From Protoeuglena noctilucae (lineage: Eukaryota), in contig OY253688.1 of NCBI GenBank assembly GCA_958009085.1, forward strand, positions 558,001 to 622,000: a stretch of 64,000 nucleotides of DNA. Direction: 5' to 3'. The notes under the pieces are model-generated. The model was not told where the DNA came from. It saw nothing but the letters and a program-made list of their open reading frames with translations, and searched no databases. Made by a program: the position numbers and the translations under genes. How positions within the stretch are numbered: the stretch's first letter is position 1; every line of letters starts with the position of its first letter. This document shows, piece by piece, positions 22,801 through 55,479 of this stretch.

Positions 22801-25800
22801 AGGGTGACAGTGGGATGGGGTGGGTGAGTGATGTAGCGCCTGCGAGGGTAGCAGTGAGATGGGGTGCGATGGTGAGAGTGGGAAGTGCATAGGCGTTGCA
22901 TGTATGCAACGAATCCCAATTACATCGCAACTATGAATGTGAGTGCACCATAATCACCAATAACACGACCACTAACAACCCCACCACGTTCACCATCATC
23001 CTCAATCATTAGTAACAACAATTACTACTAATCACATTGCCCCCACCACCGCCGCCCTAACCTCATGAGCCCGAGCATCTCGGCCTTTCGCGCCTGCTGC
23101 GACCCCGCTCCCTTGGCCGCCGCGATCCTCTTCAGTGCCAGAGACACGTCGCCCACCGTCAGGGCGCGGGGGGGCACCAGCAAACGCTGCCGGGACCGCA
23201 AGTACTGCGCGGCGTCGCCCAGGTCACCCGTGCGCCTGCGATGAAGGATCGCGGACCGGGTTGACTGTTGTTACTTAAAAAGTATGCCCGTGCAATTTTC
23301 CGTATTGGTGAAAATAGTGGAAAAGCGAACGGTGCAGCTGCTCGCGCGCCGCGGCCTCTCTGCAAATACATATTTCTATAAACCCCATTATTATCATTTA
23401 TACATAATAGATTATAATAATCATAAATTACATCATCAAAGCACTCGTATATCGCTCGCCTGTACCCCTCATGCAGCTGCGCGCGCGTCCCCCCCGTGGC
23501 CTCCAGCACCGCCTGGCTGACGGTGGCCGTGCCGACGTTCAGATCGCTGCCAGAAACGTGGCGCGGCCCCACTTTGCCGATGAGCAAGTAGGAGAAGGGG
23601 AGGAGGTCAGAAGGCGAGAGGGCCATGACGGTGCTGCACGGAAGGGGCGGGGCGGGGCGGAGAGACATGGGATGGGGTGGTGTTGCTAGTTGTCAGTAAC
23701 TAGTTATTACATATCCACGCTCCATGATACCGCAACAGTATTGATACCACAGCTCCATGGCATGACAAACACATGCAGTGGTTGTCTATGATATCAAATA
23801 TTTATGTACATCATAACATTACATCGATTCACATCCACCGATGACCCGGCCGCTCACCGCAGCGCCTGGGCGAGTCCGTCCGCGATGCTCAGCCGCTTCG
23901 TCGTGGCATCCAAGGCTCCCAATGTCCTGGCCACGTGCAGGTAAGGCACGCGCTCCCCAGGGGCCCAGCAAGCATCGCCGATATTCGAATTCGCATTCGT
24001 ATTCGAATTACCATCGCCTTTGGAACTTGGTTGCGCACCGCCGTCGTTCTTAGTAGCAGTACTACCACCCCCCCCCGTCGCAAACATGCCCATTGTTCTC
24101 GCAATGCTCGTCAATGCCTTTCCCTCACCCGCTCCACCCCTCGCTGCCTCGCCAGCCTGGCCCTCATTTTCACTCTTATCCCCACTCCCATTCCCACCCT
24201 CACCCACCGCCCCCACCACCACCTCCACCCCCTCATCCCCCACACCCTCACTCTCGCTCTCATCACTCAGCAGCTCGCCCACCACATGACCCCGATGCGC
24301 GTCTCCCTTACCCTTATTACCACCCATCTCCGTCTTTCCCACCCCTCCCCTCTCCCCACCGCTCTGCTTAGCACCAACCCCCACCGTACCACCACCACGA
24401 CCACCACCCTCACCGTCCATTGATGTCCCGCCACCCTTGCCACCCGGACTGCCCCCCACTTTCCCGAAAAACGAAAGCAGCGTTCGCTGTGCAGGGTCAT
24501 CCCGCTTGCGACCCCCTTTGCCCTTGCTTGGGGTGCCGGCCTTTGCCACAGCCCCACCCCTCATGCCCGCACTCTTGCCACCACCACCACTCTTTGCACC
24601 ACCCATTGCAACCTTCCCAGCACCCCCGCCACCACCGCCACCACCGCCACCACCCTTCACAGCCCTACCGCCACTCCCACCCCTCGCCCCCCCAACTGCC
24701 GCCCACCTCCTTGCTTCCTGCAGCACCCCCACACCCCCATCCAACACCGCTGCAATCGCAGCCTGCATGTCCCATTTGTGCTTCTCCAACAACGCACGCA
24801 ATTCCCCATGACCAAACCCCTCCGCCATATCTCCCAACACCAACCCCACTTGCTCCACCAACTCCCGCTGCTCCAATGCAGACAGCGATGCGGGGCCAGT
24901 TTCATCGATAACCTTGTCATCGCGATCCCCATCACCACGACCCCCGTCACCGCCACGACCATCGCTCTTATCGATATCGTTATCGACACCTGCCCTATCG
25001 CGAGCCCCATCGCCAGCACCGCCACCGCTCCTCTTATCAACTCCCACCGACGCCCCTGCCCCTTTCACCCCCACAATCTCAATGTCAGAATCGCTGCTAT
25101 CTCCACCTCTGCTCACCCCACCCCTCTCATCCACACCTCTCCCATCTGCACCCTCGCCCACCCCACCCCTCCCATCCACAAACACCGCACCCACACCCGC
25201 ACCTGCCCCACCATCCTTTATACTCTGTTCCACATCTCCACCGCCACCCTCACCACCAATCACCACCTCCCCACTCCCCTCGCTCTCATCAACACTGCGC
25301 TGTCGCACACGCCGCCGTTTCCTGCCCAATACCCCACCCCCACTCCCACTCCCATCCACACCCTCTCCACCCCGCTTGCCCGCCATCTCACTCCCACCCT
25401 CTCCACCCTGCTCACCCCCACCCGCACCCGCACCCGCACCCGCACCCGCACCCGCACCCGCACCCGCACCCTTTCCCCCCCGCAGCACCCCAGCCAGCAG
25501 ATTGGCCTTCAGCGCCGTCTGATCGACGTACTTCCCAAGCTTCTTCAGCACCCTGGCTTTCGCCTTATCTCTTTCCGCATCGCTACCTCCCACACCGTCC
25601 CCGACTGTTGGTATGAGCTTCTTGGGCCTTATGAACTTGACATACTCGACCAGCTCGTCCGCGCTCGAGTGCTCGCTGTAGGCGCACAGCCGTATTTCGA
25701 GATTTCCCCGGGTGAAGACGTCGCGTCGTTTACTGGCGCTGGTGTGGACCCAGCCGGTGGGGACGAAGCCCACGGCGCGGCTGTAGGGCGTGCCCTGCGT

Positions 25801-27243
25801 GTATTTGAGACAAGAGGAAAGCAAAAGGATTAGCTAAATAATGTGAGAGTGAGGTTGAGCAGCGAGGGTGGCAAGCATCGGCATGAACAAGCATTACAAG
25901 TGTAATCTAACACGACTCAACATTAGCACACAAACTATAGTACATATGCAGAATCAACACCCTTGCTATGCATGCTCACGCTATGCTCACCTCCATGGCC
26001 TTCTCCATGTTGGCGAAGTTGGGCTTGAAAAACGGCCACGTGTTTCCCAGGTAGTTCATATCAACAGTGTGGACGTTGGTCTCGGAGGCGTCGCAGGTGA
26101 AGAGGCGGGACACGACCTCGGGGGGCCTGGGGTCAGGGATGGGTGCCACAGATATATGAAGGTTATTGCATTTTGTTTATGTTCATATTTATATCTTAAC
26201 TATATAGTAATTGTATTTTTTATGTTGACAACATAATATTATTGTAACTGGAGAATATCCAATAATAGCATCACTGTACTGGTCATAATTTGTAGGGAAT
26301 CCACCCCAGCACCCGCACCCACCATGCACCCACCCCACGCACCCACCCCCACCCAGGCTTAACCTCTCACCATATGCACCCCATGACCCTCATGCGCCTC
26401 TCCGACACCATCACTCGCTTCCCGGTTCGATCCCTGACAGCCTCCAACACCTTCTCCTTCCCCAGCCCGTACGTGGCGAGCAAGAACAGCGTGTTATGAT
26501 TCGAGTTAGTACTGTTACCCGGGTCATCGAGCGATGCGACGGCGTCCGCGATCGCGTCGATGCACTCTCGCTGCGGGGGGAACGAGCCGGCCCGGAAGCA
26601 GGCGTAGGTGGTGTCGAGAAAGAGGAAATCGGCGCCCCGGAAGGATTCGATCAGCGGATCGCTCAGCATGGAGGGATCGAAGCGCATGTCGCCCGTGTGG
26701 ACCACGCGGCGGCCGTCGGGGAGCGCGAAGAGGATCTGCGCCGCGCCGGGGCAGTGGTGCGCGTCGACCAGCGTGACTGTCACTGCGGGGAGAGAGGAGG
26801 ACGTTTGTGCTACTATTGACGCAAACAGCCACTGATAGGTGTGCATACGGGTTAATCATAGCCATCGCGACCGCGCATGGGCTCCAAAGCGCGCGCTCGG
26901 CTCACCACCGTCCACAACGACGGCCTCGCGCATCGGCAGAGGCCGGAGCCACTCCTCCGCGACGCCGACGCGCTCGCGGACCACGCGCGCGGTGACTTCG
27001 GAGCAGTATATGGGGCCAGGCGACCAGCGCTCCGTGAGACCCGCGTAGTGGTCGCTGCGCGGGAGACAAACGCGGCGCTCTCGAGACGAGCTGCTGCTGC
27101 GCGCCTGCGACACCGATGCGCGCTGCCACGCGCCTGTGAGCGTGCGTCAGGAAGAACGCGGTGATGGTCGGAGAGCGGAAGCGAAACTCATCGACGGCGA
27201 ACGGGGCTCCTGGCACGGAGCGATGCTCCGGTAGCGACGTCAT
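19845..27243 (-). CDS. LIG6: DNA ligase 6 (metallo-beta-lactamase/beta-CASP DRMBL domain fused to ATP-dependent DNA ligase), multi-exon
   Basis: N-terminal FLTHAHSDHYAGL, DAHHCPGA, HTGDMR, LFLDTTY and YSEHSS; ligase motifs PMLAKP, EWKYDGQR, LDGEIV, EGLVIK, WLKMKRDY, EVWEITGADLSLSP and IALRFPRFLRLRPDK. Confidence 0.92.
25420..25470 (-). repeat. Coding hexamer microsatellite (GGTGCG)n encoding poly-(Gly-Ala) in LIG6
   Basis: About 8 CCCGCA copies on the + strand; similar short tracts at about 21120 and 43205. Confidence 0.85.
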
Positions 27244-31447: not shown

Positions 31448-34400
31448 TCAGAGCCCGAACAGCCCCCGCTTGCGCGTCACGTTGGCCTCGACGTCGCGGG
31501 GGTCGGTGTAGCCGTCGTCGGTGCCCTCCGTGCCGGGGATGCGCTTGATCTCCTCCTTCACCATGGTGCGCAGCTTCTCCTGGGCCTCCTTCAGCTGCGG
31601 GGCGATAGAAGAAGATAGCGACGGTTTGTATGCATTGGAATACGTTACTGGCAGCCGGGGCGCACGTATCGTGCTGTGTGACGTGCTGCGGCCGCGCGCA
31701 ACGTGTTGTGCCAGAGATAGGGGCCCGGGAACTCGCCTTGTGGCGGCACTCCATGTAGGTGGTGAGCCCCCCGACCTTGTTGCCGAGAATGATGGCGGCG
31801 ATGATGACGGAGATGGTCGAGATAACGCTCCATTCGGAGGCGATGGACTCGATCTTGGCCTGGATGGCAATCACGGGGATACACTCGCACACGATCGTGA
31901 TGATGTCGGCCTGCTTCCTCAGGATCTCGCGCTCCAGGTGCTCGACCTGAGTGTAGGGGGGCACAGGGTACGTGTCAGGTACGTAATGGGTGACGGGCAT
32001 GTGACTGGGGCACGTGACAGGAGCATCGAGTGGGCATGATATGGAGGCATGGAGTGGACCATGAACGGCGTCGACTGGCATGCTTCGTGAGGCCAAGTTC
32101 GCAGCAATGCGAGGTCATGGCAGGCGCCGGACTCGCAACGATGTGTTTTGGGTTAGGGTAGGTGCACGACCAAGTGATGCAATAACCACCCCTTACCTCG
32201 TCCATGTGCTGAGTGTTCTCCTTGTGCAGGGCGGACAGCGCCTCGTCGATGTGGCGGCGCTCGACATTGGTCTGCTGCTGCATGGCGCGGAAGGACGCCC
32301 GCTTGGCGATCTGCTTGGCGTGCACGGCCACGAAGCTGCGGAGAGGTAGGCGGTGTATGTTATACCGATATCATGCTCCTGGAGCACGGTATAGGTACAG
32401 TAGAAATAAATAGCAAGGATTTGCAGCAAGTCCCGGCAGCCCTCGATCATGTCATGCATGATTAGTGTAGTATGCATGGTCACTCACTCTGCGGCGTGAT
32501 CCTTCTTCTGGGCCATGATGCGCATGAAGAGACCTGCGGGGGAAGGGAGGAAGAAGCAAGTATGGGTCGGTACGCAACCACGAAAACCCGCACCCACCCA
32601 CCACCCACATGCACACACACACACCCAACACACAGAGAGCACAGCCCAGCACTCACGGATGGACACGAAGGCGGTGGTGAGGGTGGACACGAAGGCGATG
32701 GCCGTGAAGAGCACGGCAATGGGGTAGACGTTCTTGAACGTGACGTCGCCCTGGATGGTGTAGAACGTAGCAAGGGCGAACGCGAGCACGTCGCCGAAGT
32801 TGAAGAAGACGTCGACCAGGATGCACACGGGCTCCGAGAAGAGCAGGGACATGATCTGGTCCAGGTCCAGCTTGCCGCGGCGGGCCTGGGGGGTGGGGGG
32901 ATGCGAGGGTCAGCGGAGCGAGTGATGCGAGGCTCAGTGGGCGAAGAGAGCAAGGTGAAGATGCCATGATGTGATGAGGTGCGCGACAGGTGCCAATCAT
33001 CTCAAAAGTGCTGGCTATTTGCAACTGACTACTGACTGTCCACGGAGTGGACAGTCAAGCTCACCGCGATGAAGAGGGCGATGCCGACACTGAGCACGAA
33101 GCCCCCGATGGCGGCGATGAGGGCGTAGGTGGTGAGGCTGGCGCGAGTGGACGAGGTGGGGGGGTTGTTGATTGACTCGCCGTCGCACGTGAGCTCGTTG
33201 CTGCCGTTGATGCCAACGTTGTTGGTGTAGCCCAGCGGGGTCATATCGGCGTCCTTCAGGGGCTTGGCGAAGTCGATGCTGCTCTGCGAACAGAGGCAAG
33301 GGGCGGTGAGGGGTTGGGCCTCTTCAGTGGCGGCACAGCAAGTCGCGACCATCGAGACCACGCTGCAGGTCGAGGGCTCAATGTTGCTACAATATTCCAC
33401 AGTGCAACATCTAAAGATAACGTTCCTATAACATTCGAATATCCTTCGAGGTCACCTGGCCCTCCTTGAGGTCGGACGGGTTGCCGTACGTCCAGCCCGT
33501 GAACTGTGCGAGGGTCTTGGTGCTGGTGGTGCAGGTGGAGCCCTGGTTCTGGCGCAAGATGAAGTTGAAGGCCACGTTGAAGCCGTCGACGCCGCTCGTA
33601 CCGTCAATCGAGACCTTGTAGACGTTGGAGTGGGTGATCATGGTTGACGAAAGTGGCAAGAATCCTAAGGTGCCGGCCTTGCTGATGACCGAGCTCGTCG
33701 TGAAGCTGTAGTCGATATCCGTGTCCGTCGTGTCCTGGCAGGCTGCCCAGCTGAAGTTGGAGTATGCCGACGTGAGGGCGGTGGTCATCATGACGCGCTC
33801 AGCCGAGGCGCTCGGCGGGCAGAGGATGGTGGGTGCCACGGTGTTGTTGAGGCCGAGGGACGTCCACACCGCGGTGCTGCGGGGGAGGAGGCGGGGAGAG
33901 ACGTGACACAATGCGTGGGTGGGTGGGGGTAAGGGAACTTAGATGCATAATTAGTGTTTGTGACTAGCGTTGGAAGCTGTTACAGCTGAGCCCCCTCACC
34001 CGGAGATGGAGCCGCTGATGATCTGGGCGAGGGTGTTGAGGGAGAGGGTCGCGATGGTCGGGTTGGTGGGGCAGGAAGTGGCGCTGTTGCAGGCGTTAAT
34101 GTAGAGGGCCGTGGTGATCTCCACGAATGGAATGGCCACCGTGTCTGCGATGAGAGATAGCATGTGGCTCATCAGAAGCGAAACTCAATGGCCGTTACGT
34201 ATGGCTGTCACGTAGCGAGCACGTACATGTCACTGGCGCCAATCTAATGCATAGCATACACAGCGTTGCCCCTCACCGGCCTGCCCGATCCACCAGTTCT
34301 CCCCCTCCGACGACTGGGGCGCGATAAGGGGCTGGTTGGCCACCATGGGAGCCCACAGCGCGCGCCAGTCCGCCGATGTCTTGCCAGTGTCAATGGCTGT

Positions 34401-36793
34401 GTAAAGGAGGGTCATCTCGGGGTTCATGGAGATGTAGCTGTTGCCGTACAGCTCCATAATCTTCTGCGTTGATAAAAAGGGGGCGGACGGGAGTGGCTGG
34501 AAAGCCCGCAGCGAGCGCTGCTGCTCCTGTCATGCCCGCGTCCCTATTTGCGTCTATCCATGCCGCCCCAGCTCACACCTCGAGGTTGCTGGGCCCGCTG
34601 TAGTAAATGGGGATCTGCAGGCCGGCGTCCGGCTGGGCCAGGGACCCGTCGGCGCACTTGATGTCCGAAAGCAGGCGCGTGACGACCTTGGTGCTGACGG
34701 ACTCGGGCAGGGGAGAGAAGCCATGCAGCACGGCGAGGGACTTGGCGACGTCGCTGGTGTAGAAGCAGTGCCAGAAGTCGACGGTCGCTTGGCGGCGGGC
34801 GCAGTCGTTGAACACGTCCGTGTCCTTGCGCATCACCAGGTAGGTGTAGCCCGCGGCGGGCCAGGCGAACGTACCCTGTGGGGTGGGTGGGTCTTGTTCG
34901 GGAGGTGAGAGGGGGTTGTAAGGGGCCAGGGGTAGCATGGCAAGTGAGCGGTGCAGCGGTGGAGCACGCAGACTGTGAAGTGGGGTGGTGCAGATGTCGT
35001 CCATGAAGTGTTAAGACGCACTGATTCCTGGCCCTCACCTGTGCGCCCTCGACGGCCGCAGTGAGGCGGTCGGCGGGGTCGCCTGTGTTGCCGAACGACA
35101 GACCCAATTCAGCCACGGCGAACTGCACGGCATCGATGCTGGGCTCGATGATGTTCTTGCCGTTGACGCTGCGCACCCACACGACCGAGGCGCCCGTGTC
35201 GAGGGCGTACCCCAGCACGATGTAGCCGAAGGTGTAGTCGGTGGTGGCGACGTAGGCGGCGAGCTCCTGCGAGTGGTGACGGGGGTGACGAGCGTGATGG
35301 TCATTTCAACATTTGTTTCATCTGAAGCAAATGCGTTGACTGACGACGCACCTCATTGCCGGGCTGACGGGTGTAGGTCATGCTGGGATTGGGCCAGGCG
35401 CCCGTGGGGCTGTCGCTGGCGACGACGTTGCTCGAGGTCAGGCCCGACTGCTCCAGGCCAAGCGTCTGCGTGTCACGCAAGGGTCACGCACAGGTGAGGA
35501 TCACACGTGAGGGCCACGGTCGCTGCTGAGCTGTAGGTGGACCATGCCATATCAGCCTTTTCTACATGCCATGGCTCCCTCACCAGTGCCGTGGTCCAGA
35601 TCTGCGTGGTCCCGGACGTCTCGCCACGCACCACGACCTCAATGGCCTTGCCCGGCATCGACTGCAGGGCCGCAGTAACCTGCATGGCAGCACGACAAGC
35701 GATGCATCGTCAGGAGCGAGTCTTATAATGCTGATTGTCATGGAATGTGTCACTGCTGGCTGCCACTTCAGGAGGCGTAAAACGCAGCAACGAGGCCGTG
35801 GGCTGGACAGCAGCCGTGCCAACCTTCCCACAGCTGTGCCTCACCTCGGGGTGCTCCTGGTCGGCGAGGATGCGGGAGTCGTCCCAGGTCTTGATGTCGC
35901 CACCGAAGATGTAGGCGATGGTGGACATCTTGAGGACCATAGGCTTGCCGGTGGCCTTGACGGCCGGGTGCGAGTAGACGGCCGTCACGGCGCCAGCCAC
36001 CGTGGGGTACATCTGGAGGTCGGGGTAGGACGAGTTGTCCTTGTTAACCAGGAGCGAGTCGGAGCCTGCGAAGGGGGGCGAGTTGGCGACTTGCGTATCT
36101 GGGGCTGACAGCCTACGTCTGGTCGCCCGGCTAGTTGTTGCCACGCAGCGCAGGAAAGACAGAGCACAAAGCACGAACCACGCACCGGCGAAGTCGACCT
36201 TGTAGGGCTCCCCCATGGTGTCGCACGACGACGACCCGGTCTTGATGCGGCACTTGCCGCCGCCCGAGCCTGCGGGTGAATGCAGCGAAGCGTTAAATGG
36301 GCAATAGCAACATCGCTTTGTGTCGCTTTGTGCGTAGGTACTACGGGACTTTAACTTTCAGGACGTGTCGCCAACGTATCGCCAAACGCGTCGCCAATTG
36401 CTACTCAGGTCATGTCGTATCGTGCCGTGCCGTGCCGTGCCATGCCGTGCTGCCGCCGAGGCACCGCTGGCTCACCGGTCGGCAGGTAGGACACGTCGAC
36501 GTTGGTGGTGACGTACTTGTACGAGAACATGGCATCCTGGTAGAGCACCTCGGGGAAGGTGCCGCCCGCGCCCTTGATGCTGTACGTCTTGGTCGATGCC
36601 GCCGAGGCGGGCGTGGACGCCGTCTGCGCGAGCGTCAAGGAGAAGAGGCACGCCGCGAGGGCCGCGGCGGCCAGGAAAGCGCGACGGAGCTGCGGGGAAG
36701 CGGCGGGGCGGGTCCGGGGTGAGCTGGGCCAGCTCGCCGGACTTGGCGTGCCGCACGGCGGGTAGCGGCATGCGGCAGAGGCATGCGCACCAT
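31448..36793 (-). CDS. Signal peptide + PstS-like phosphate-binding domain + degenerate second binding domain + multi-TM C-terminus (about 17 exons)
   Basis: M|LRRAFLAAAALAACLFSLTLAQ signal peptide; PstS motifs IKGAGGTFP, YLPTGSGGG, DFAGSDS, IFGGDIKTWDDSRI, VVRGETSGTT and AWPAAGYTY; several hydrophobic helices in the exons at 33283-31737. Confidence 0.8.
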
Positions 36794-40936: not shown

Positions 40937-43900
40937 ATGTCGGCCGCGAGCTGGGCCCCGGCAGGCCGCCCTGGCAGCCGGGAGGTCGCGCGGCGCCCGC
41001 GGGCCGCTCCCCGGCTGCTCCCGGTAGCCTCGCGCTCTGTTCGACCTGGCGATGCCACATCGGCGGCGCTGGCGGCCCGCGCAGCCGCGCCCAAGCCCTC
41101 CCCTGGTCCCCTGAGCCGCAACGCGTGTCCCATGCCTCCCGCGCCCGCCGCGCGCCGCCCCGCGCGCCGCCTGCCCCCGCCGAGCGCCTCCGCGAGTTCG
41201 AGTGCGCTCCCCGCGCCCGGCCAAGAGCCCTGGCAGCCCCCCGTCTCGTGGAAGGAGCGCATTCGACGCACGATAGGCCAGATGGACGGACTGTGGGGCG
41301 AGTTCGTCCCCATGGTGGCTCTCTTCTTCTTTATGGCATTCGTCAACACGGGTGAGAGATGGTGGAGATGGTAAATGCTACTTTGTTGGGTGTATGGTCA
41401 TCACGTTTGGTTCTCCTCCCCCAATCACTGACTCGCTCATAGGCACCCTCGTCGTCACAGCTACCCTCACCCCCACTGTAGCACTCACCCCCACCCCCCA
41501 CTCTCATCACCCCAGTCATCGACAGCCTCAAGGACACCCTGGTCGTCACGAGCGTGGGGGGCGGCCCCCAGGTCATCCCCTTCCTGACCGTATACGCCGT
41601 CCTGCCCGCCTCCCTCGTCTTCTTCGCCCTCTACTCCCTCGCCACCCAGCGCTTCTCGAGGGCCCAGACGTTCAACGTGGTCATCGCCGCGTTTGTCGCC
41701 TTCTTCGCGGCGTTCGCGTTTCTGGCGTACCCCAACCACGAGGCCCTGCATCTGGCGTCGCTGGATGCCTGGACGCAGGCGGTGCCCACGGGGCTGCAGG
41801 GGCTGATCGGGATGGCCAGGTGAGAGGGAGTGGGGTGGGGTTGACTGCAGGGGCTGATCGGGATGGCCAGGTGAGAGGGAGTGGGGTGGGGTTGACTGCA
41901 GGGGCTGATCGGGTTGGCGAGGCGAGGGAGTGGAGTGGGTGCAAGTGGGGTTGCTGGGATGCCGAGGTTTATTATCGGATACTTATATAATTATCGTAAC
42001 CTTATCGCAAAAATGGACCTTCACGCTCTCCTACTTCGTCATCGGTGCACATCCATTTACCCTGATCTCCCAATCATATATTACCACCCCCATCCTCAGA
42101 AACTGGACCTTCACGCTCTTCTACGTCGTCAGCGAGCTGTGGGGCGACGTTGTGCTGTCGCTGCTCTTCTGGGGGCTGGCCAACGACATCACGAGCCTTC
42201 GCAAGGCGCGCGTGCTGTACCCGCTCTTCGGGATCGGGGCCAACGTCGCGCAGGTCGCCGCGGGGAGGTTCTTGAAGGCGAGTTTGTGATGTAGCTGTAT
42301 GTGTTTGATAATGGCCGTTAGTTGCATTGTGGGATGGGCATTGTGGGATGGGTAGCCGCGGGGAGGTTCCTCAAGGCGATATGGGCGATAGAGCTAGTGC
42401 TCGGTCATTACTGTGTTAATTATCAGTTATTGTTGTTTTGTTATTATACTTTGGCACATCATTGTTACCGTCATGATAACTTTCTTACAGTTCTATCCTC
42501 TCCCTCTCTGAGCAGGTGTGGGGCGCAGCGGCGGCTGCCAAGGGGACGGCCTTCCAATCGCTGCTGCAGGTGAGAAGGGGGGTGTTTGCTTTGGTAGCTA
42601 TAGTTGTTATAGCTGCTATATCGCATTCACACTTGTCGTGTACCATGCATCACCCCTCTCTTTCCCCCCCCCCCACTCTCCCACCCCGCAGGTGCAGATG
42701 TGCACGTGCATCGCGTCCGCCCTGTGCGTCATGCTCACGCACCAGTACATCATGGTGCGATTCCGACGAAGGCAGCCGCCGCAGAGGAAGGACGTGAGGG
42801 TCGCGAGGTGGGTGGTTTGGGGGGGGTTAGCGGCGGGTGGGGGTGGTGTGGGAGTGAGCTCACACATGAGGGTGGCAGTTCACACCTACCCTCACTCACT
42901 CCCTAAACCCCGCCCCCTCCGCACCCACTCCACCCCCACCTCATCCCTCCCACCCTGCCCCCCCCACACCCACTCCACCCCCACCTCACCTCATTTCACC
43001 TCATCCCACCCACCCCGCTCCCCATCTCCAGGCTGATGGCCGAGGGTAAATCCCGGGAGCAGGCAGAGTTTCTGGCGGGCTACGAGTCCGACGCCGACCT
43101 GGGCGTCCTGGGGAGGGCAAAGCCCCGGGGGGACTCTGACAGGGATTCTGACAGGGATCTCGAGTCAGAAACAGAGGCAGATTCAGAAGAGCCGGGGCCG
43201 GCGGGTGGTGCGGGTGCGGGTGCGGGTGCGGGTGGTGGTGTGGGTATGGGTGCGGGTGCAAGTGCCAATGCGGGTGTGGAGGAGGCTCGCGCGGAGTCTC
43301 GTGCGGTGTTGCGGCGCATCCAGGACGGCGGCACGGTGTCTGTCTCAGGTCGGGTGCCGGGCTTTGGCGATGCGGGGGGCGACGGTGGGCGTGCGTCCAC
43401 CAGCGGGCGAGGGGCGGCACCGGAGAGCTCTCTGGGCTGGGGAGAATCTTCGAAAGAATCGAGAGAGTCGAGAGAATCGAAGGATTCGAACCTCGCACCC
43501 GGCGTTGGCGAGGGGGTTGGCGATGGCGACGAGGGCGGCAGCAGCAGCGGCAGCAAGAGTGGCAGCGACGGGAGTGAAAAGAGCGATCGGAAGATGACGG
43601 TATTCCAGGCTTTGCGTTTCGTGGCCAAGTCCCCGCAAGTGCGCTCGCTGGCCGTCATGTCCCTGTCCCAGGGGGTGTGCACAACATTGCTGGAGTTCGC
43701 ATGGAAGACCGAGCTCAGGCGCATGCACCCCACGCCGCAAGCGTTCAGCGCGTTTATGGGCGACGTGGCGTCGGCGACGGGGCTGACCACGGTGGCATTG
43801 ATGGCCGTGTCACCCGCGCTGTTCCGTCTGGTGGGGTGGAAGGGGGTGGCGTCGGTCAGCCCCAGGTGAGAGATGGGGAGGAGGTGTGATGGGTGGTAGT

Positions 43901-48226: not shown

Positions 48227-51200
48227 ATGCAGGCGCAGGCCTCGCCGTGCATGGCAGCGGCGAGAAAGCCCCTCCGGCCGCAGTCGCTGGGGCTGACCGG
48301 GCCCGCTCGGCAGGTGCGATGCGTTTCCGGGATCTCGATGGAATGGCGCGCTCCTCCGTTCGGGTCGCCGGGGCACCGCCTCGCCAGGGCGACCTTTTGC
48401 CTTTGGCCCGAGCGGCCGGGGAGCGCCTGGGCGCCGAGGGCCGCGCCCAGCTGGCCGAGGCTCGTTTCCGATAGCCAAGAAGCGGTCGCGACGTCCGATC
48501 CGTCCCCTGGACCCCCCCGGGCTCCTCCCCTGCTCGGCTTCTATCGGGTCTCGGGGATGGATCAGTCGCCCCGCCCCGGGAGGCCCTCCCCGGGGCCGCC
48601 TCCCGCCCGTTCGTTTACGGTTAGACTCTCGCTTCCGTAGGCCCCACCGGCGCGGCGGGTCGCCCTCGACTCCCGCCCCGTCCCGGTACCTCCCTTGCTC
48701 GCGATAGATTCGCGCCTCGCGCAGCTGCCCGTTTTGCGTGCGTCGCTCCCTGGCTTTGATGCGCTCGGAATGCTCCGGAATGCTCGGTCGGGGCTCTGCC
48801 GGGGAGTCTTGGTCGGGACGCGCTGCGCAGGGGGAGCCGTGCCTGGCCATGTCCCCGCCGGGCCCCACCGGTGCCTCGCCTCCCCGAGTCTTTTGCGCGC
48901 GGTGTTTTATTGCGCTAATTCTCGTCGGTCTGGCGGCGCTGCGAGGGACGGCGACGCCGGGGCGCGCCGGGCTGCAACGAACCACTCGGCCCTTTTTCCA
49001 CGCGCAGGGAGCCACGCGTGGGGAGAGGAGGGGTGCTGGCAAGGCCAAGCATGGATCTCGGAAGGTGCGAGCGAGCTCCCGATGGCTGGGACGCTGCAGG
49101 CGGGCCGCGAGTGCGGGGCGGACGGGTGCCACTTTGGCTGTCCCCTCCGGCGCCTCGGGACGCGATGGCGCCGCCGTAGGGATGATAGCCCATGCGCACA
49201 TTCTTACGGCATCGGATGGTGCCGCCTTTGGCGCGAGCAGCGGCCGGGAGCAGTGGGCCGGGGTCGATTTCGGTTCGCGTTGTCCCCCCAGGTCACGGCG
49301 ATGGTGGCCACGGGCCCCAGGCCCCCGGCGGTCAAGAACGACAACAAGAAGCCCGTGAGCGTGTCGATCGGGGACGGGCCCTCAGGTGACAGGCGGTGCG
49401 GGTGGCTCTCGTGCAGTGCTCTCGCTGCGCGGCGGTGCGGGCTCGTGGGACTCTCCACTTGCGCGTGTCGCCTTTGCTCTCTCGTTTCGCCGGCGCGCAC
49501 GCCGCGCCGTCGCTGGGGAGCCCTCGGGGGTCCACGCGCAGGCATTGCGCCGCGCCCACGCGTTGCTCCCCTCCTCGCGACGCAGGCGGCAGCGGCCTCT
49601 TCACGTCGACGTCGCCCGAGATGCGGAGGGTGCGGGTGGACGCGGGCGAACGCCTCAAGCTCAAGCTTGTGTACGTGGTGCTCGAGGCCCAGTACCAGTC
49701 GGCGCTGGATGAGGCGGTCCGGAACCTGAACGCCAACAACGACCAGGCGCGCCGCCGCTCTCGCGACGCGCGCATTATTATTTACATATCTTTCTCCGCG
49801 TCCCGCGCTCATCGCGCAGCGACGCCCCCGCGCGCGCAGGTGTGCGTGGAGATGGTGGGCTACCTTCTGGAAGAGCTGCGCGATGCGAAGAACCTCGAGC
49901 TCTTCAAGAAGGACATTTCGGACGCCAACATCTTCATCGGATCGCTCATCTTCATCGAGGAGCTCGCCGACAAGATCGTGGAGGTCGTCGGCCCCGCCAG
50001 CGACCGCCTGGACGCCTGCCTCATCTTCCCCTCCATGCCCGCCGTCATGCGGCTCAACAAGCTCGGCTCGTTCTCCATGTCCCAGGCGAGTCGAACGAGC
50101 CGAGCAGAGACCGCAGCGTCGCGCCCACTTGCGCTGCGTCCAGCCCAGCGCAAGCCGCAGCCCTGTGCGCCGCCACCATGCTGCGCACCTGCACCCGCTC
50201 CCCAGCACAGCCCCGCTCCCCTGCACATCGCCTCGGCCCCGGCCGCCTTTTCTACCTCAGCCCTAGCCACCTGCACCCCTCATCCCCCCTCGCCCCTTCG
50301 CTCACGTCACCCGCAGCACCCATGCCCACCTCACCCTACCCACCCGCAGCTGGGCCAGTCCAAGTCGATGATGGCCGAGTTCATGCGCAACGCTCGCAAG
50401 AACAACGACAACTTCGAGGAGGGACTGCTGCAGCTGGTCCGCACGCTGCCCAAGGTGCTCAAGTACCTGCCGGCCGAGAAGGCCCAGGACGCCCGCAACT
50501 TCGTGCTCTCGCTTCAGTACTGGACGGGCGGCGACGCGGGCAACCTGCAGAACATGATCCTCAACGTGGCCAAGGCGTACGTGCCGGCCGCCAAGACGCT
50601 CCCGCTGTCGTTCGACGAGCCCTGGGTGTACCCCGACACGGGCATCTGGCACCCGATGGCGCCAGAGATGTTCGAGGACATCGAGGAGTACCTCAACTGG
50701 TACGACAGGCGCAAGGACGTCTCCATCCCCAAGGACGCGCCTGTGATCGGCCTCGTACTGCAGCGGTCGCACCTGGTGACGGGCGACGACGCGCACTACG
50801 AGGGCGTCGTGATGGCGCTCGAGGCCAAGGGGGCGCGCGTCGTGCCGGTCTTCGCGGGCGGGCTCGACTTCTCCGTGCCGGGTGAGTGGACGAGGGGTGG
50901 GTAGTTGGATGGGGTGGGTGGCGGAGCGGTGGGGTGGTAGTGGGTGAGCGAGCGGGGGTGGGGTGGGGTGCAGCTGCGGGGGTGGGTGAGTGAGCGGTGG
51001 TGTACGGTGGGGCAGCGGCGGTGGGCAGAGCGATGCTGTGTGGATGAGCGGGGGTGTAGGCTGGGGAGCAGAGGTGGTGGGGTGGACCTGCGGGTAGCAG
51101 CGGGGCTGTGGGTTCAGGAGTCAGGCACCCCTCCCACGCACCCTCACCTGTACCCATCACGCCCCTCATTCACACCCTCATTTCTACCCGCGTACCCACC

Positions 51201-54200
51201 TTGGCTCACATGCCGCCCTCAACCCCCTTGACTCTCACATACCGCCCCCACCGCCCAACCCCCCGCAGTGCGCAAGTTCTTCTACGACCCCCTGGGCTCC
51301 GGCCGCCCCCTCGTCGACACCGTCGTGTCGCTGACCGGGTTCGCGCTCGTGGGTGGCCCGGCGCGGCAGGACGCGCCGAAGGCCGTCGAGGCCCTCAAGA
51401 AGCTCGACGTGCCTTACCTCGTGTCGCTGCCCCTCGTCTTCCAGACGACTGAGGAGTGGCAGGGGTCCGAGCTGGGGGTGCACCCGGTCCAGGTGGCCCT
51501 GCAGGTGGCCCTGCCCGAGCTGGACGGGGCGATCGAGCCGGTCGTGTTTGCTGGGCGCGAGTCGCGATCCGGCAAATCCCACGCGCTGCCCGACCGCGTG
51601 GACGCCCTGGTGGACCGGGCGATGAACTGGGCGCGGCTGCGGCGCAAGCAGAACCGGGAGAAGCGCCTGGCCATCACGGTCTTCTCCTTCCCGCCCGACA
51701 AGGGCAACGTCGGGACCGCCGCCTACCTCAACGTGTTCGGCTCCATCTACCGGGTGCTCCAGAGCCTCAAGCGCGAGGGTTACGACGTGGGCAACATCCC
51801 GGCCGACGAGGGCGCGCTGATCCGCAGCGTGCTGAACGCGGACGAGGCGCGCTTCAACAGTGAGGAGCTCAACATCGCTTACCGCATGCCGGTGGACGAG
51901 TACCAGCGCCTGTGCCCCTACGCGGACGCCCTGGAGGAGAACTGGGGCAAGCCGCCGGGCACGCTCAACACGAACGGCCAGGAGCTGCTGGTGTACGGCC
52001 GCCAGTTCGGCAACGTGTTCATCGGCGTGCAGCCGACGTTCGGCTACGAGGGCGATCCCATGCGGCTGCTCTTCTCCAAGTCGGCGTCGCCGCACCACGG
52101 ATTCGCGGCCTACTACACCTACCTGGAGCGCATCTTCAAGGCGGACGCCGTGCTGCACTTCGGCACGCACGGGTCGCTCGAGTTCATGCCTGGCAAGCAG
52201 GTCGGCATGTCCGGGTACTGCTACCCGGATACCCTCATCGGCACCATCCCCAACCTCTACTACTACGCGGCTAACAATCCGTCGGAGGCCACGATTGCCA
52301 AGAGGCGGTCGTACGCGGCAACAATCTCATACCTCACGCCGCCCGCCGAGAACGCGGGGCTGTACAAGGGGCTGAAGGAGCTGAAGGAGCTCAGCTCCAG
52401 CTACCAGGCGAGTGGGTGGGGTGGTGGGGTTATGGTGGTGTGAGGGGTGCAAGTGAGGTGGCAGTGGCGATGACAGTTGATGGCTGGGCTGGGGCTGTGC
52501 AGCACCTTGCTGGTCGGCGTGGGGAATGCGCATGTCACTTTTCAGATGGTGGTAAGCGCTGCGATGGTCTGGTCGACTTGCGCACTTTACACTGCGCTGC
52601 CCATGCCTGCCACTGTACCTGGTCACTTACGGTCACTTACGCCTGCTGACCGATCCCCTGGTCACTGACTGACGTTCATGACACTCCCCCTTCTTCCTCC
52701 GCAGAGCCTCAAGGACTCTGGCCGCGGCCCGGCCATCTGCAACTCCATCATCGCCACGGCCATCGAGTGCAACCTGGACAAGGACGTGAAGCTGCCCGAG
52801 GGGGACGCCAAGGACCTCAGCAGCGACGAGAGTGAGTGGGTTACAGGAGGGGATGCGATGATGGGGGTGTGATTTTGATGGCGAGGAAGCGAGCGGTGTC
52901 GAGTGACGGGGGCTGAGGGTAGCGCAGGGCTGCTTGGCTGTTCACAACTCCGCCCCCGCTCTGCTCCCCCACCATCACTCACCAACCCCACTCACCCCAC
53001 CCTCTCCCCCCAGGGGACCTGGTCATCGGCAACGTGTACCGCAAGCTGATGGAGATTGAGTCCCGCCTCCTCCCCTGCGGCCTGCACGTGGTCGGGGTGC
53101 CACCCACCGCCGAGGAGGCCGTCGCCACCCTCGTCAACATCGCGGAGATCGACCGTCCCGAGAACGACCCCCCGATCAAGGGCCTGCCGGGCATCCTGGC
53201 GCGGGCGGTGGGGCGCAACATCGAGGAGGTCTATGCCAACAGCAACAAGGGCGTGCTGGCCGACGTGCAGCTGCTCCAGGACATCACGGAGGCCGCGCGG
53301 AGCTGCGTGCGGGAGTTCGTCAAGGGCAAGACCGGCCCCGACGGGCGCATCAAGACGGGCGACTTCCTTTCGGCGCTCGGGGCGCTCGCGGGGCTCACGG
53401 TCGACCCCTGGCTCAAGGGTGTGCAGAACACCCCGTTCAAGTCGGCCGATCGAGTCGAGCTCAAGACCCTTTTCACCTACCTCGAGTTCTGCCTGAACCA
53501 GGTGGTCAAGGACAACGAGCTGGGCGCGCTGACGGTCGGCCTGGCGGGGCGGTACGTGGAGCCGGGCCCCGGCGGTGACCCGATCCGCAACCCGGGCGTG
53601 CTCCCGACCGGCAAGAACATCCACGCGCTGGACCCCCAGTCGATCCCCACGTCGGCCGCCTGCAAGTCGGCGGCGGTGGTCGTGGAGCGGCTGCTGGAGC
53701 GCCAGAAGGAGGAGAACGGGGGCAAGTACCCCGAGACCATCGCCCTCGTACTGTGGGGCACGGACAACATCAAGACCTACGGCGAGTCGCTGGCTCAGGT
53801 GCTGTTCATGGTGGGCGTGCGCCCGGTGCCCGACGCCCTGGGCCGGGTCAACAAGCTCGAGGTCATCCCGCTTTCCGAGCTCGGCCGGCCCCGCGTGGAC
53901 GTGGTCGTCAACTGCTCCGGGGTGTTCCGCGACCTGTTCGTCAACCAGATGAACCTGATCGACAGGGCCGTCAAGATGGCGGCGGAGCAGGACGAGCCGC
54001 TTGAGATGAACTTCGGTGAGCGGGGGTGGGGGGTGTTAGCATGGATGGGTGTGTGCGCGTGTGGTGGTTGATGAGAGACTTGAGATGACTTTCGGCACAG
54101 ATGGTGGGGGTGACAGGGAGCATGTGACATGGCGACAGCGTGTGCATACGTGCAAAGCGTGCGCGCCTGCGACAAACTTGCAATTCAACCCTTCACCCAA

Positions 54201-55479
54201 CCACCCAACCACCCCTCCCTCACCCCCAGTCCGCAAGCACGCGCTGGAGCAGGCGGAGGAGCTGGGCTGCACCCTCCGCGAGGCCGCCACGCGCGTCTTC
54301 AGCAACTCGTCGGGTTCGTATTCCTCGAACGTCAACCTGGCCGTCGAGAACTCGAGCTGGTCGGACGAGGGGCAGCTGCAGGAGATGTACCTCAAGTGAG
54401 TGAGAGCAGAGTGGAAGGGATGGCGGTGGATTTGGGTGGTGGCTTATGGGCGTAGATGGAGATGGCGAGCGCAGCGCTGGCCCTGCCACCAGCCCCACCC
54501 GCTGTGCACTGCCATTCGCTCTCACGCTCACTGCCACCCTAGCCACGCACCACCATCCCTCTCGCTGACCCCAGTCACCCCACTCTCCCTCACCCTCTCT
54601 ACCTCCCACCCTCACACCCCCAGGCGCAAGTCCTTCGCCTTCAACTCCGACCGCCCCGGCGCGGGCGGCGAGGAGGCGCGCGCCATCTTCGAGAAGTCGA
54701 TGGCCACCGTCGACGTCACCTTCCAGAACCTCGACTCTTCCGAGATCAGCCTGACTGACGTCAGCCACTATTTCGACTCGGACCCGACCAACCTCGTGCA
54801 GGGGCTGCGGAAGGACGGCAAGAAGCCCGCCTCGTTCATCGCCGACACCACCACGGCCAACGCGCAGGTGAGGGAGTCGGGGTGATTGGGGTGGATCTGT
54901 GTGGGTGGGGTGAGGATGCATGGCGGGGGGAGCTGCGACTGGCGCTGGGCTGGCGTGGTTGAGCTGCGGGATGTGTTGGTGACACTGGGTGGGTGTCGGC
55001 CTGCCTGCATGGCTGACACCACAGCTGATGCACTGCAGTCACCCACTCGCCCAACCTGCCGACCGTCTCACTCTCACTCCACCCCCTCTCTCCCCCTCCC
55101 CCAGGTCCGCTCGCTCTCAGAGACGGTCCGCCTGGACGCTCGCACCAAGCTCCTCAACCCCAAGTGGTACGAGGGCATGCTGTCATCCGGATACGAGGGC
55201 GTGAGGGAGATCCAGAAACGCCTCACCAACACCATGGGCTGGTCCGCCACGTCCGGCCAGGTCGACAACTGGGTCTACGACGAGGCCAACGCGACGTTCA
55301 TCGAGGACCCCGACATGGCCAAGCGACTTATGGAGACGAACCCGAGCTCGTTCCGGAAGCTCGTGGCGACCTTCCTCGAGGCCAACGGTCGGGGCTACTG
55401 GGACGCCTCCGAGGACCAGATCGAGCGCCTCAAGCAGCTCTACATGAACGTGGAGGATAAGATCGAGGGCGTGGAGTGA
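48227..55479 (+). CDS. CHLH: Magnesium chelatase subunit H, multi-exon
   Basis: [100 protein letters not shown] and EDKIEGVE*. The transit-peptide exon 48227-48313 is inferred. Confidence 0.98.

Follow-up and report, generated by a model that had tools for sequence, protein, structure and literature searches.

Gene structure and protein layout

The 64-kb window analysed here (positions 558,001 to 622,000 of contig OY253688.1 of Protoeuglena noctilucae; coordinates below count from its first letter) carries on its minus strand, at 31448-36793, a gene predicted to encode a multi-pass membrane protein whose ectodomain is related to the bacterial phosphate-binding protein PstS. Joined by coordinate, its 17 exons give an open coding sequence (CDS) of 3000 nucleotides (nt), or 999 amino acids (aa), with the ATG at 36793-36791 and the stop at 31450-31448, the limits given in an earlier note on this DNA. 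Exon limits were set by coordinate on the minus strand and then checked by script. Of the 16 introns, 15 have GT-AG ends and the other has GC-AG ends, intron lengths range from 85 to 250 nt, and across all exon junctions the splice phases are consistent and no stop codon occurs. The gene sits in GC-rich (~0.6), intron-rich eukaryotic DNA, and a search within the window found no second copy. Short low-complexity repeats occur in introns 2 (36404-36455, CACGG-like) and 13 (32589-32640, GT/GGTG-rich) and were passed over as repeats when RNA contigs were aligned.

The first coding exon is uncertain. Exon 1 (36791-36793) contributes the ATG only, and because this ATG and the signal peptide lie in different frames, a short first intron is required. 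Two would restore the frame, one of 101 nt directly after the ATG (GT at 36790, AG at 36691-36690), and one of 53 nt from 36742, for which the exon runs from the ATG to 36743. The signal peptide is preserved under either option, and spliced RNA covers neither. Exon 2 (36476-36689, residues 2-72) encodes this N-terminal hydrophobic, typical signal-like segment (residues 1-23), as the earlier note had claimed, and the start of a first PstS-type domain with the motif GAGGTFP (41-47). The domain continues through exon 3 (36186-36269, residues 73-100), with GSGGG (73-77, over the exon 2/3 junction) and two family cysteines (C79, C88), exon 4 (35845-36065, residues 101-174), which holds the conserved PstS core with AGSD (100-103), and exon 5 (35584-35679, residues 175-206), in which VVVRGETSGTT includes the R-GET-SGTT motif (192-199). 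Exons 6 (35352-35465, residues 207-244) and 7 (35039-35266, residues 245-320) extend it, and exon 8 (34579-34875, residues 321-419) ends it with WPAAGYTY (325-332) and the family cysteines C345 and C394.

A second, degenerate PstS-like domain begins in exon 9 (34277-34463, residues 420-481), continues in exon 10 (34000-34144, residues 482-529) with IPFVEITTALY (486-496) and LSLNTLAQIISGSI (515-528), and has its core in exon 11 (33456-33876, residues 530-670). Exon 12 (33065-33283, residues 671-743) closes the ectodomain with an LTCDG juxtamembrane motif, also present in the relative P0029, and carries the first predicted transmembrane segment (TM1, 722-744). Of five N-X-S/T sequons in the protein, four fall within the ectodomain, as do 11 cysteines. 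Exon 13 (32657-32885, residues 744-819) encodes TM2 (757-785), with the acidic residues E761, D768 and D775, and TM3 (796-820). A putatively cytosolic helical loop (821-894) starts in exon 14 (32488-32533, residues 820-834) and fills exon 15 (32197-32335, residues 835-881); its 74 residues include 13 K+R and 11 D+E and neither Pro nor Gly. Exon 16 (31737-31946, residues 882-951) holds the end of the loop, a weak, amphipathic TM4 (895-913) and TM5 (920-942), and is followed by the GC-AG intron. Exon 17 (31448-31594, residues 952-999) completes a charged tail (943-999) and ends in a TGA stop.

The count of about five TM helices in the earlier note agrees with these five hydrophobic segments, of which one is weak; the count is 4-5, a four-span reading being the less likely. 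Its description of a coiled-coil-like loop and tail stands for charge and helicity; the coiled coil is a heptad-compatible impression only (best a/d hydrophobic share 0.5-0.88). On the positive-inside rule the likely topology has the N-terminus outside, five spans and the C-terminus inside, and the protein is predicted to be a type I multi-pass membrane protein located at the cell surface.

Transcript evidence

The stretch matches marine metagenome runs, runs of one organism and, in part, four marine metatranscriptome runs from one study. Contigs of these four runs were aligned to the gene and their joints compared with the modelled introns. Seven of the 16 introns were matched exactly by contig joints in runs X9 and X10, namely those at 33877-33999 (exons 10 and 11), 33284-33455, 32886-33064, 32534-32656 and 32336-32487 (the two flanking exon 14), 31947-32196 and 31595-31736. 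The last is the GC-AG intron, the only non-GT donor among the 16, for which joints were found in two runs with ends reading CT..GC on the plus strand. Two contig loose ends also agree with exon ends, at introns 34145-34276 and 32534-32656 (positions 34145 and 32533); the loose end at the end of exon 9 is 12 letters long. Exons 17, 16, 15, 14 and 13 are traversed by a single 767-nt contig (X10, record 2) that reaches into exon 12, and further contigs connect exons 12-11 and 11-10. Because of these connections the second ectodomain, all membrane segments and the tail belong to one spliced message.

In the four runs exons 1-8 were touched by unspliced contigs only, and neither they nor the exon 8/9 junction were covered by a spliced one, which is uninformative either way; run X11 yielded unspliced pieces only (pre-mRNA or DNA). 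The RNA check for a single transcript that the earlier note had proposed is thereby answered for exons 10-17, which are joined, with exon 9 attached by its loose end; for exons 1-8 it returned the unspliced contigs. Domain 1 is taken to be joined to the rest because the frame is unbroken, the splice phases are consistent and relatives align across the junction in one piece: P0008 (model residues 38-747) and P0090 (34-813) align without a break across both domains and into TM1. Retention of intron 14 would bring an immediate TGA (boundary 32488-32490) and give a truncated form ending after TM3; this intron is spliced in contigs from X9 and X10 and unspliced in a contig from X11.

Two tandem PstS-type domains

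Profile libraries and the PDB were searched with single exons, or with exons 3-4 read through their in-frame intron, only. All 15 PDB matches of exons 3-4 (E <= 10) are PstS or phosphate-binding proteins; the best has E 3.4e-05, and E. coli PstS follows at E 4.3e-04 with AGSD aligned on its D56 motif. Single exons match TIGR00975 (PstS) collinearly at its positions 49-119 (exon 4, E 1.3e-08), 125-149 (exon 5, E 1.7e-04), 182-233 (exon 7, E 3.7e-03) and 252-309 (exon 8, E 2.4e-03), with scores of 34.3, 20.8, 16.4 and 17.0 bits, each under the curated cutoff of 205. Single-exon matches to Pfam PBP_like_2 are likewise weak (15.9 and 17.2 bits, cutoff 27). Alone, exon 2 gave a weak PDB match to a phosphate transporter subunit (E 0.89), and exon 5 gave repeat proteins on top and PstS3 only at E 1.3; both queries are too short to count. 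The closest relative of the spliced model is P0016 (residues 38-395, E 3e-86), which in turn aligns with E. coli PstS along almost the full chain (18-346 / 4-304, E 6.2e-27) and scores 201.3 bits with TIGR00975 (equivalog cutoff 205) and 93.8 bits with PBP_like_2 (cutoff 27).

The phosphate ligands of E. coli PstS, which we take to be T10, F11, S38, D56, R135, S139, G140 and T141, agree in numbering with the aligned chain positions. Their equivalents are T45 and F46 (exon 2), S74 (exon 3), D103 (exon 4) and R192, S196, G197 and T198 (exon 5), so that all eight are kept, and E194 stands at the position of E. coli D137. The D56 equivalent comes from the direct PDB alignment of exons 3-4 and the other pocket positions were mapped through P0016. 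Seven pocket positions were tested across the family and are conserved in 51 of the 68 family rows having all seven. The 17 exceptions include a subgroup with T at the D56 position and D at G140 (P0028, P0085, P0067 and P0059, which also have I or V at T141), and these substitutions suggest a different ligand in the receptors of that subgroup. The family cysteines are kept in 66 of 112 rows (C79), 50 of 57 (C88), 64 of 68 (C345) and 58 of 60 (C394). The first pair (C79/C88) is absent from E. coli PstS where the printed P0016 alignment covers PstS, and the pattern fits disulfides in an extracellular eukaryotic domain.

Judged by these alignments, domain 1 (about residues 35-400) is a PstS homologue with its pocket intact and is predicted to bind phosphate. 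The complete PstS-like domain, its listed motifs and the retained phosphate-binding equivalents, all read from the letters in the earlier note, were recovered in the spliced protein and borne out by the PDB, TIGR00975 and P0016 matches.

The diverged second copy that it had described was also upheld. Residues 425-715 match a second-domain profile made from 28 relatives (hhalign probability 96.6%, E 5.2e-10, 257 columns), and this family profile matches the domain 1 profile with a probability of 100% (E 3.4e-48). A direct comparison of the present domain 2 with the domain 1 profile gave a collinear alignment, though a weak one (E 0.015, probability 2.9%), and the link of domain 2 to PstS therefore holds only through the family second-domain profile. 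In the alignment to the domain 1 profile the pocket positions are lost. By profile comparison, the region of about 425-715 (domain 2) is a second PstS-like copy, degenerate and without a pocket.

The family of relatives

Relatives were collected by a HMMER scan of 1.84 billion representative proteins with the 141-residue exon 3-4 stretch as the query. The scan found 229 proteins at E <= 1e-3, 29 of them at E <= 1e-10, and many are 700-2400 aa long. Among the best 150 of the 229, 47 have at least 600 aa, and most of these have a hydrophobic cluster after about residue 650-800. A Pfam domain scan covered 40 of the relatives of at least 600 aa. PBP_like_2 was found in 39 of the 40, 7tm_3 (class C G-protein-coupled receptor, GPCR) in 21 and Ephrin_rec_like in three, with single cases of PDEase_I, Guanylate_cyc, PARP+WWE, Glutaminase, TRP and ANF_receptor; several are single-pass proteins with no further domain. 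From the domain partners of these 40 we therefore conclude, at the level of predicted domains, that eukaryotic membrane receptors commonly use the PstS-type ectodomain as an input module. The family chassis consists of domain 1, domain 2 and a TM segment, and the features of this tandem PBP_like_2 type I membrane family (a signal-like segment, C79/C88/C345/C394, domain 2, and the juxtamembrane stretch with TM1) are all present here. One relative, P0002 (2386 aa), combines four PBP_like_2 domains in tandem with Ephrin_rec_like repeats and a domain resembling a TRP channel, and is a possible fusion of binding domain to channel inside the family.

The search for the same architecture, which the earlier note had recommended, thus returned the ectodomain family with TM1 and nothing for the membrane module of this protein. 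The note had not recognised the architecture and implied that it was singular. That did not hold, as PstS-type ectodomains on eukaryotic membrane receptors are widespread (the 229 matches) and in print. A passage of PMC3251606 describes a glutamate-family GPCR with PBP_like_2 in the chytrid Spizellomyces (SPPG_06488), and one of PMC4815078 reports for Plasmodiophora brassicae 7tm3 fused to bacterial binding domains, termed novel transporters. A literature search turned up no work on the function of any eukaryotic receptor with a PstS ectodomain. As a class, the architecture is already described and not functionally characterised, so the note's own caution that the family might prove to be a characterised one applies to the ectodomain architecture and not to its function. 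The new part is the orphan membrane module.

The C-terminal membrane module

No 7tm_3 match was found on the C-terminal exons in Pfam at E <= 0.1, and the module was rejected as 7tm_3: it has about five hydrophobic segments and scored -1.5 bits against a profile of 20 family 7TM segments (hhalign probability 1.2%). A phmmer comparison of residues 700-999 with 150 relatives matched only P0029, and there only over the LTCDG juxtamembrane stretch and TM1. Comparison of the C-terminal region by hhalign with the 7TM profile and 15 other C-terminal regions added nothing beyond the P0029 stretch. The PDB sequence search gave 0 matches for exon 13 and one, at E 1.2, for exon 16, and NCBIfam had no match to the C-terminal exons. 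A word-index protein search for longer relatives produced 389 candidates with exon 8 and 202 with exon 13, none of which scored; for near relatives, the exon 13 search returned only P0151, a 100%-identical fragment from the same organism. A metagenome locus (L001), the only match of an exon 11 scan, was rejected as an orthologue (tblastn, 55 residues, 34.5% identity, E 4.5e-4).

In the ESM Atlas no match exceeded the threshold of the tool. The best matches of exon 16 were unnamed clusters (0.92 and 0.90). Exon 13 (TM2-TM3) reached 0.88 at best (recognition 1830, sub-threshold), and its sub-threshold look-alikes at 0.78-0.82 were fragments of HCO3_cotransp, Sulfate_transp, Xan_ur_permease and MFS_MOT1, which serve as a lead only. 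As far as sequence comparison reaches, the membrane module is without a detectable relative apart from the juxtamembrane stretch and TM1.

Comparison with known systems

Bacterial PstS is a soluble or lipid-anchored subunit of an ATP-binding cassette (ABC) transporter, and the lipid-anchored form serves PstCAB in Gram-positive bacteria. Domain 1 is homologous to bacterial PstS (TIGR00975 / PF12849; E. coli PDB 1ixh) over its full length and keeps the ligating residues. The protein differs in being eukaryotic and intron-split, with an inserted Cys-bounded loop and further family cysteines, in its degenerate second copy and fused membrane helices, and in having no PstC, PstA or PstB gene in the window. 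No ABC transporter part was found among the 87 open reading frames (ORFs) of at least 170 aa in the window at E <= 1e-4, as the earlier note had also observed of permease and ATPase. With no ABC partner in the window and a membrane module of its own, the protein does not fit the substrate-binding-subunit role of PstSCAB.

The PBP_like_2 class C GPCR-like receptors belong to the ectodomain family of this protein, and P0008 and P0090 align with this protein from domain 1 to TM1, whereas here there is no 7tm_3, and about five helices are broken by the 74-residue charged loop. The single-pass tandem-PstS proteins (P0016, P0028, P0029, P0053, P0067, P0112 and P0141) share the signal peptide, domains 1 and 2, the LTCDG-type stretch and TM1, but end after one TM or in low-complexity tails, whereas four more hydrophobic segments and charged helices follow here.

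In ionotropic glutamate receptors a type II binding-protein domain is coupled to a pore. The likeness lies in a periplasmic-binding-protein fold outside the cell that is directly coupled to a small membrane module. No exon has a Lig_chan or ANF_receptor match in Pfam, however, the binding domains here are contiguous and precede all TM segments, and a SYTANLAAF-like motif was not seen. The DING / human phosphate-binding protein group comprises soluble PstS-family phosphate binders reported from eukaryotic material, of disputed origin. None occurs among the 19 PDB matches of P0016, and the present gene, in contrast, is membrane-fused and plainly eukaryotic, with RNA-confirmed spliceosomal introns.

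A candidate surface phosphate sensor

Our leading explanation, held tentatively and with somewhat less than even confidence, is that the protein is a surface receptor-like phosphate sensor. A single nuclear gene, rich in introns and from a GC-rich marine alga, would give a type I multi-pass membrane protein. After the signal peptide, two tandem PstS-type (PBP_like_2) domains would lie outside the cell, domain 1 binding and domain 2 pocketless. A conserved juxtamembrane stretch would lead into TM1, followed by the TM2-TM3 hairpin with its three acidic residues and, after TM3, by the 74-residue charged, Pro/Gly-free cytosolic helix, the second hairpin (weak TM4, TM5) and the charged tail. Domain 1 would close on orthophosphate in the manner of a Venus flytrap, domain 2 and TM1 would relay the closure movement into the membrane and helical module, and this module would signal external phosphate to a cytosolic partner or through oligomerising. 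Phosphate binding itself, surface exposure, the topology, the transmission to the membrane module and the signalling output are what we infer here.

A sensor is preferred because more than half of the scanned relatives couple this ectodomain to signalling modules and because the protein goes far beyond a simple anchor: a single TM suffices in relatives like P0016, and the membrane part here exceeds that. The earlier note had proposed either a receptor-like sensor or a scavenger. The pair is still a sensible one, and the sensor gains from the GPCR, cyclase and phosphodiesterase fusions found in relatives.

Several results weigh against a sensor. No signalling domain was found on the C-terminal exons in Pfam, NCBIfam and PDB sequence searches, and no orthologue of the C-terminal module by word index in the protein library or by phmmer or hhalign among the relatives. 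In the four runs no spliced RNA contig shows domain 1 joined to the rest. The E at the D137 position, a conservative change, is found in only 9 of 140 family rows. Published work treats eukaryotic pstS as a matter of uptake or as a marker of phosphorus (P) stress, which a scavenger fits equally well.

Such a scavenger is the strongest rival, although we consider it rather unlikely. In it, a tethered high-affinity PstS would capture phosphate at the surface and pass it to a separate transporter of the PHO4, PiT or SLC34 type, and the membrane module would anchor or cluster the protein. The intact domain 1 pocket agrees with this, as do the several single-pass relatives that have short tails and lack signalling domains, among them P0016 (746 aa, TM 678-703). 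So does the literature on eukaryotic PstS: in a passage of PMC11409870 the 'pstS' of picoalgae is counted as a phosphate transporter, with more copies in oligotrophic picoalgae, eukaryotic pstS is induced under nutrient restriction in a prasinophyte (PMC11217555), and its transcripts serve to mark P stress in eukaryotic communities (bioRxiv 10.1101/2025.04.09.648040). The five-helix module with its long charged helices, however, exceeds the needs of an anchor, the ORF scan of the window found no transporter gene nearby, and the ectodomain is tied to signalling modules in the relatives to the extent given above.

A different ligand, or a non-binding adhesion or structural protein that retains only the PstS fold, appears improbable. 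The altered pocket in 17 of 68 family rows means that ligand shifts occur in the family, and the lost pocket of domain 2 and the E at the D137 position point the same way, but domain 1 retains all eight ligating positions and the exact GAGGTFP and SGT motifs. About as improbable, if not slightly more so, is a bolder form of the sensor in which the PstS flytrap directly gates the orphan module, a new type of output device, so that the protein would be a phosphate-gated channel or 'transceptor'. In the channel case the acidic TM2 would line an oligomeric pore for cations or anions, with the long cytosolic helices mediating its assembly. An artefact of the gene model, merging a secreted PstS-like gene with a separate membrane-protein gene, is very improbable: exons 1-8 and the exon 8/9 junction have no spliced RNA contig, but no junction brings a stop or an inconsistent phase, RNA contigs tie exon 9 (by its loose end), 10, 11 and 12 through to 17, and P0008 and P0090 align in one piece from domain 1 to TM1 on an identical family chassis.

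On the bolder reading, the PstS-ectodomain family as a whole would represent the external phosphate sensors of protists. By placing a bacterial high-affinity phosphate-binding domain on the outer side of membrane proteins, the family offers concrete candidates for phytoplankton phosphate sensors. In a 2024 review, whether eukaryotic phytoplankton sense phosphate at the plasma membrane or internally is given as undecided, and rapid phosphate-evoked Ca2+ signals are described (PMC11448323). A phosphate-gated channel or transceptor, if it exists, would be a candidate for the plasma-membrane step behind those signals. A caution also follows for eukaryotic metatranscriptomes, in which 'pstS' reads counted as transporter or P-stress markers stem from receptor-like proteins and not from ABC subunits. 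The family outweighs the individual gene in importance, and the distinctive point of this gene is a membrane module without a known relative.

Genomic surroundings

The window otherwise contains ordinary nuclear genes of a photosynthetic eukaryote, including those for Mg-chelatase H, a plastid-type ATP/ADP translocator, DNA ligase, an SNM1-type nuclease, cyclophilin, an aminotransferase, a deoxynucleoside kinase and a WD40 protein. A very strong negative GC skew (-0.494) at 24001-26000 lies over a 659-aa minus-strand ORF with a DRMBL DNA-repair domain in its N-terminal part and no family match in the remainder. An ORF at 42907-43866 on the plus strand carries a TLC ATP/ADP transporter domain and is a putative plastid-type nucleotide translocator. 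The nuclear gene for Mg-chelatase subunit H lies at 49390-55476 on the plus strand, with DUF3479 and CobN-Mg_chel matches over four ORF pieces, and from it the organism is taken to be photosynthetic. Its first ORF begins with an Ala/Arg/Ser-rich presequence that has no obvious signal peptide in the portion read.

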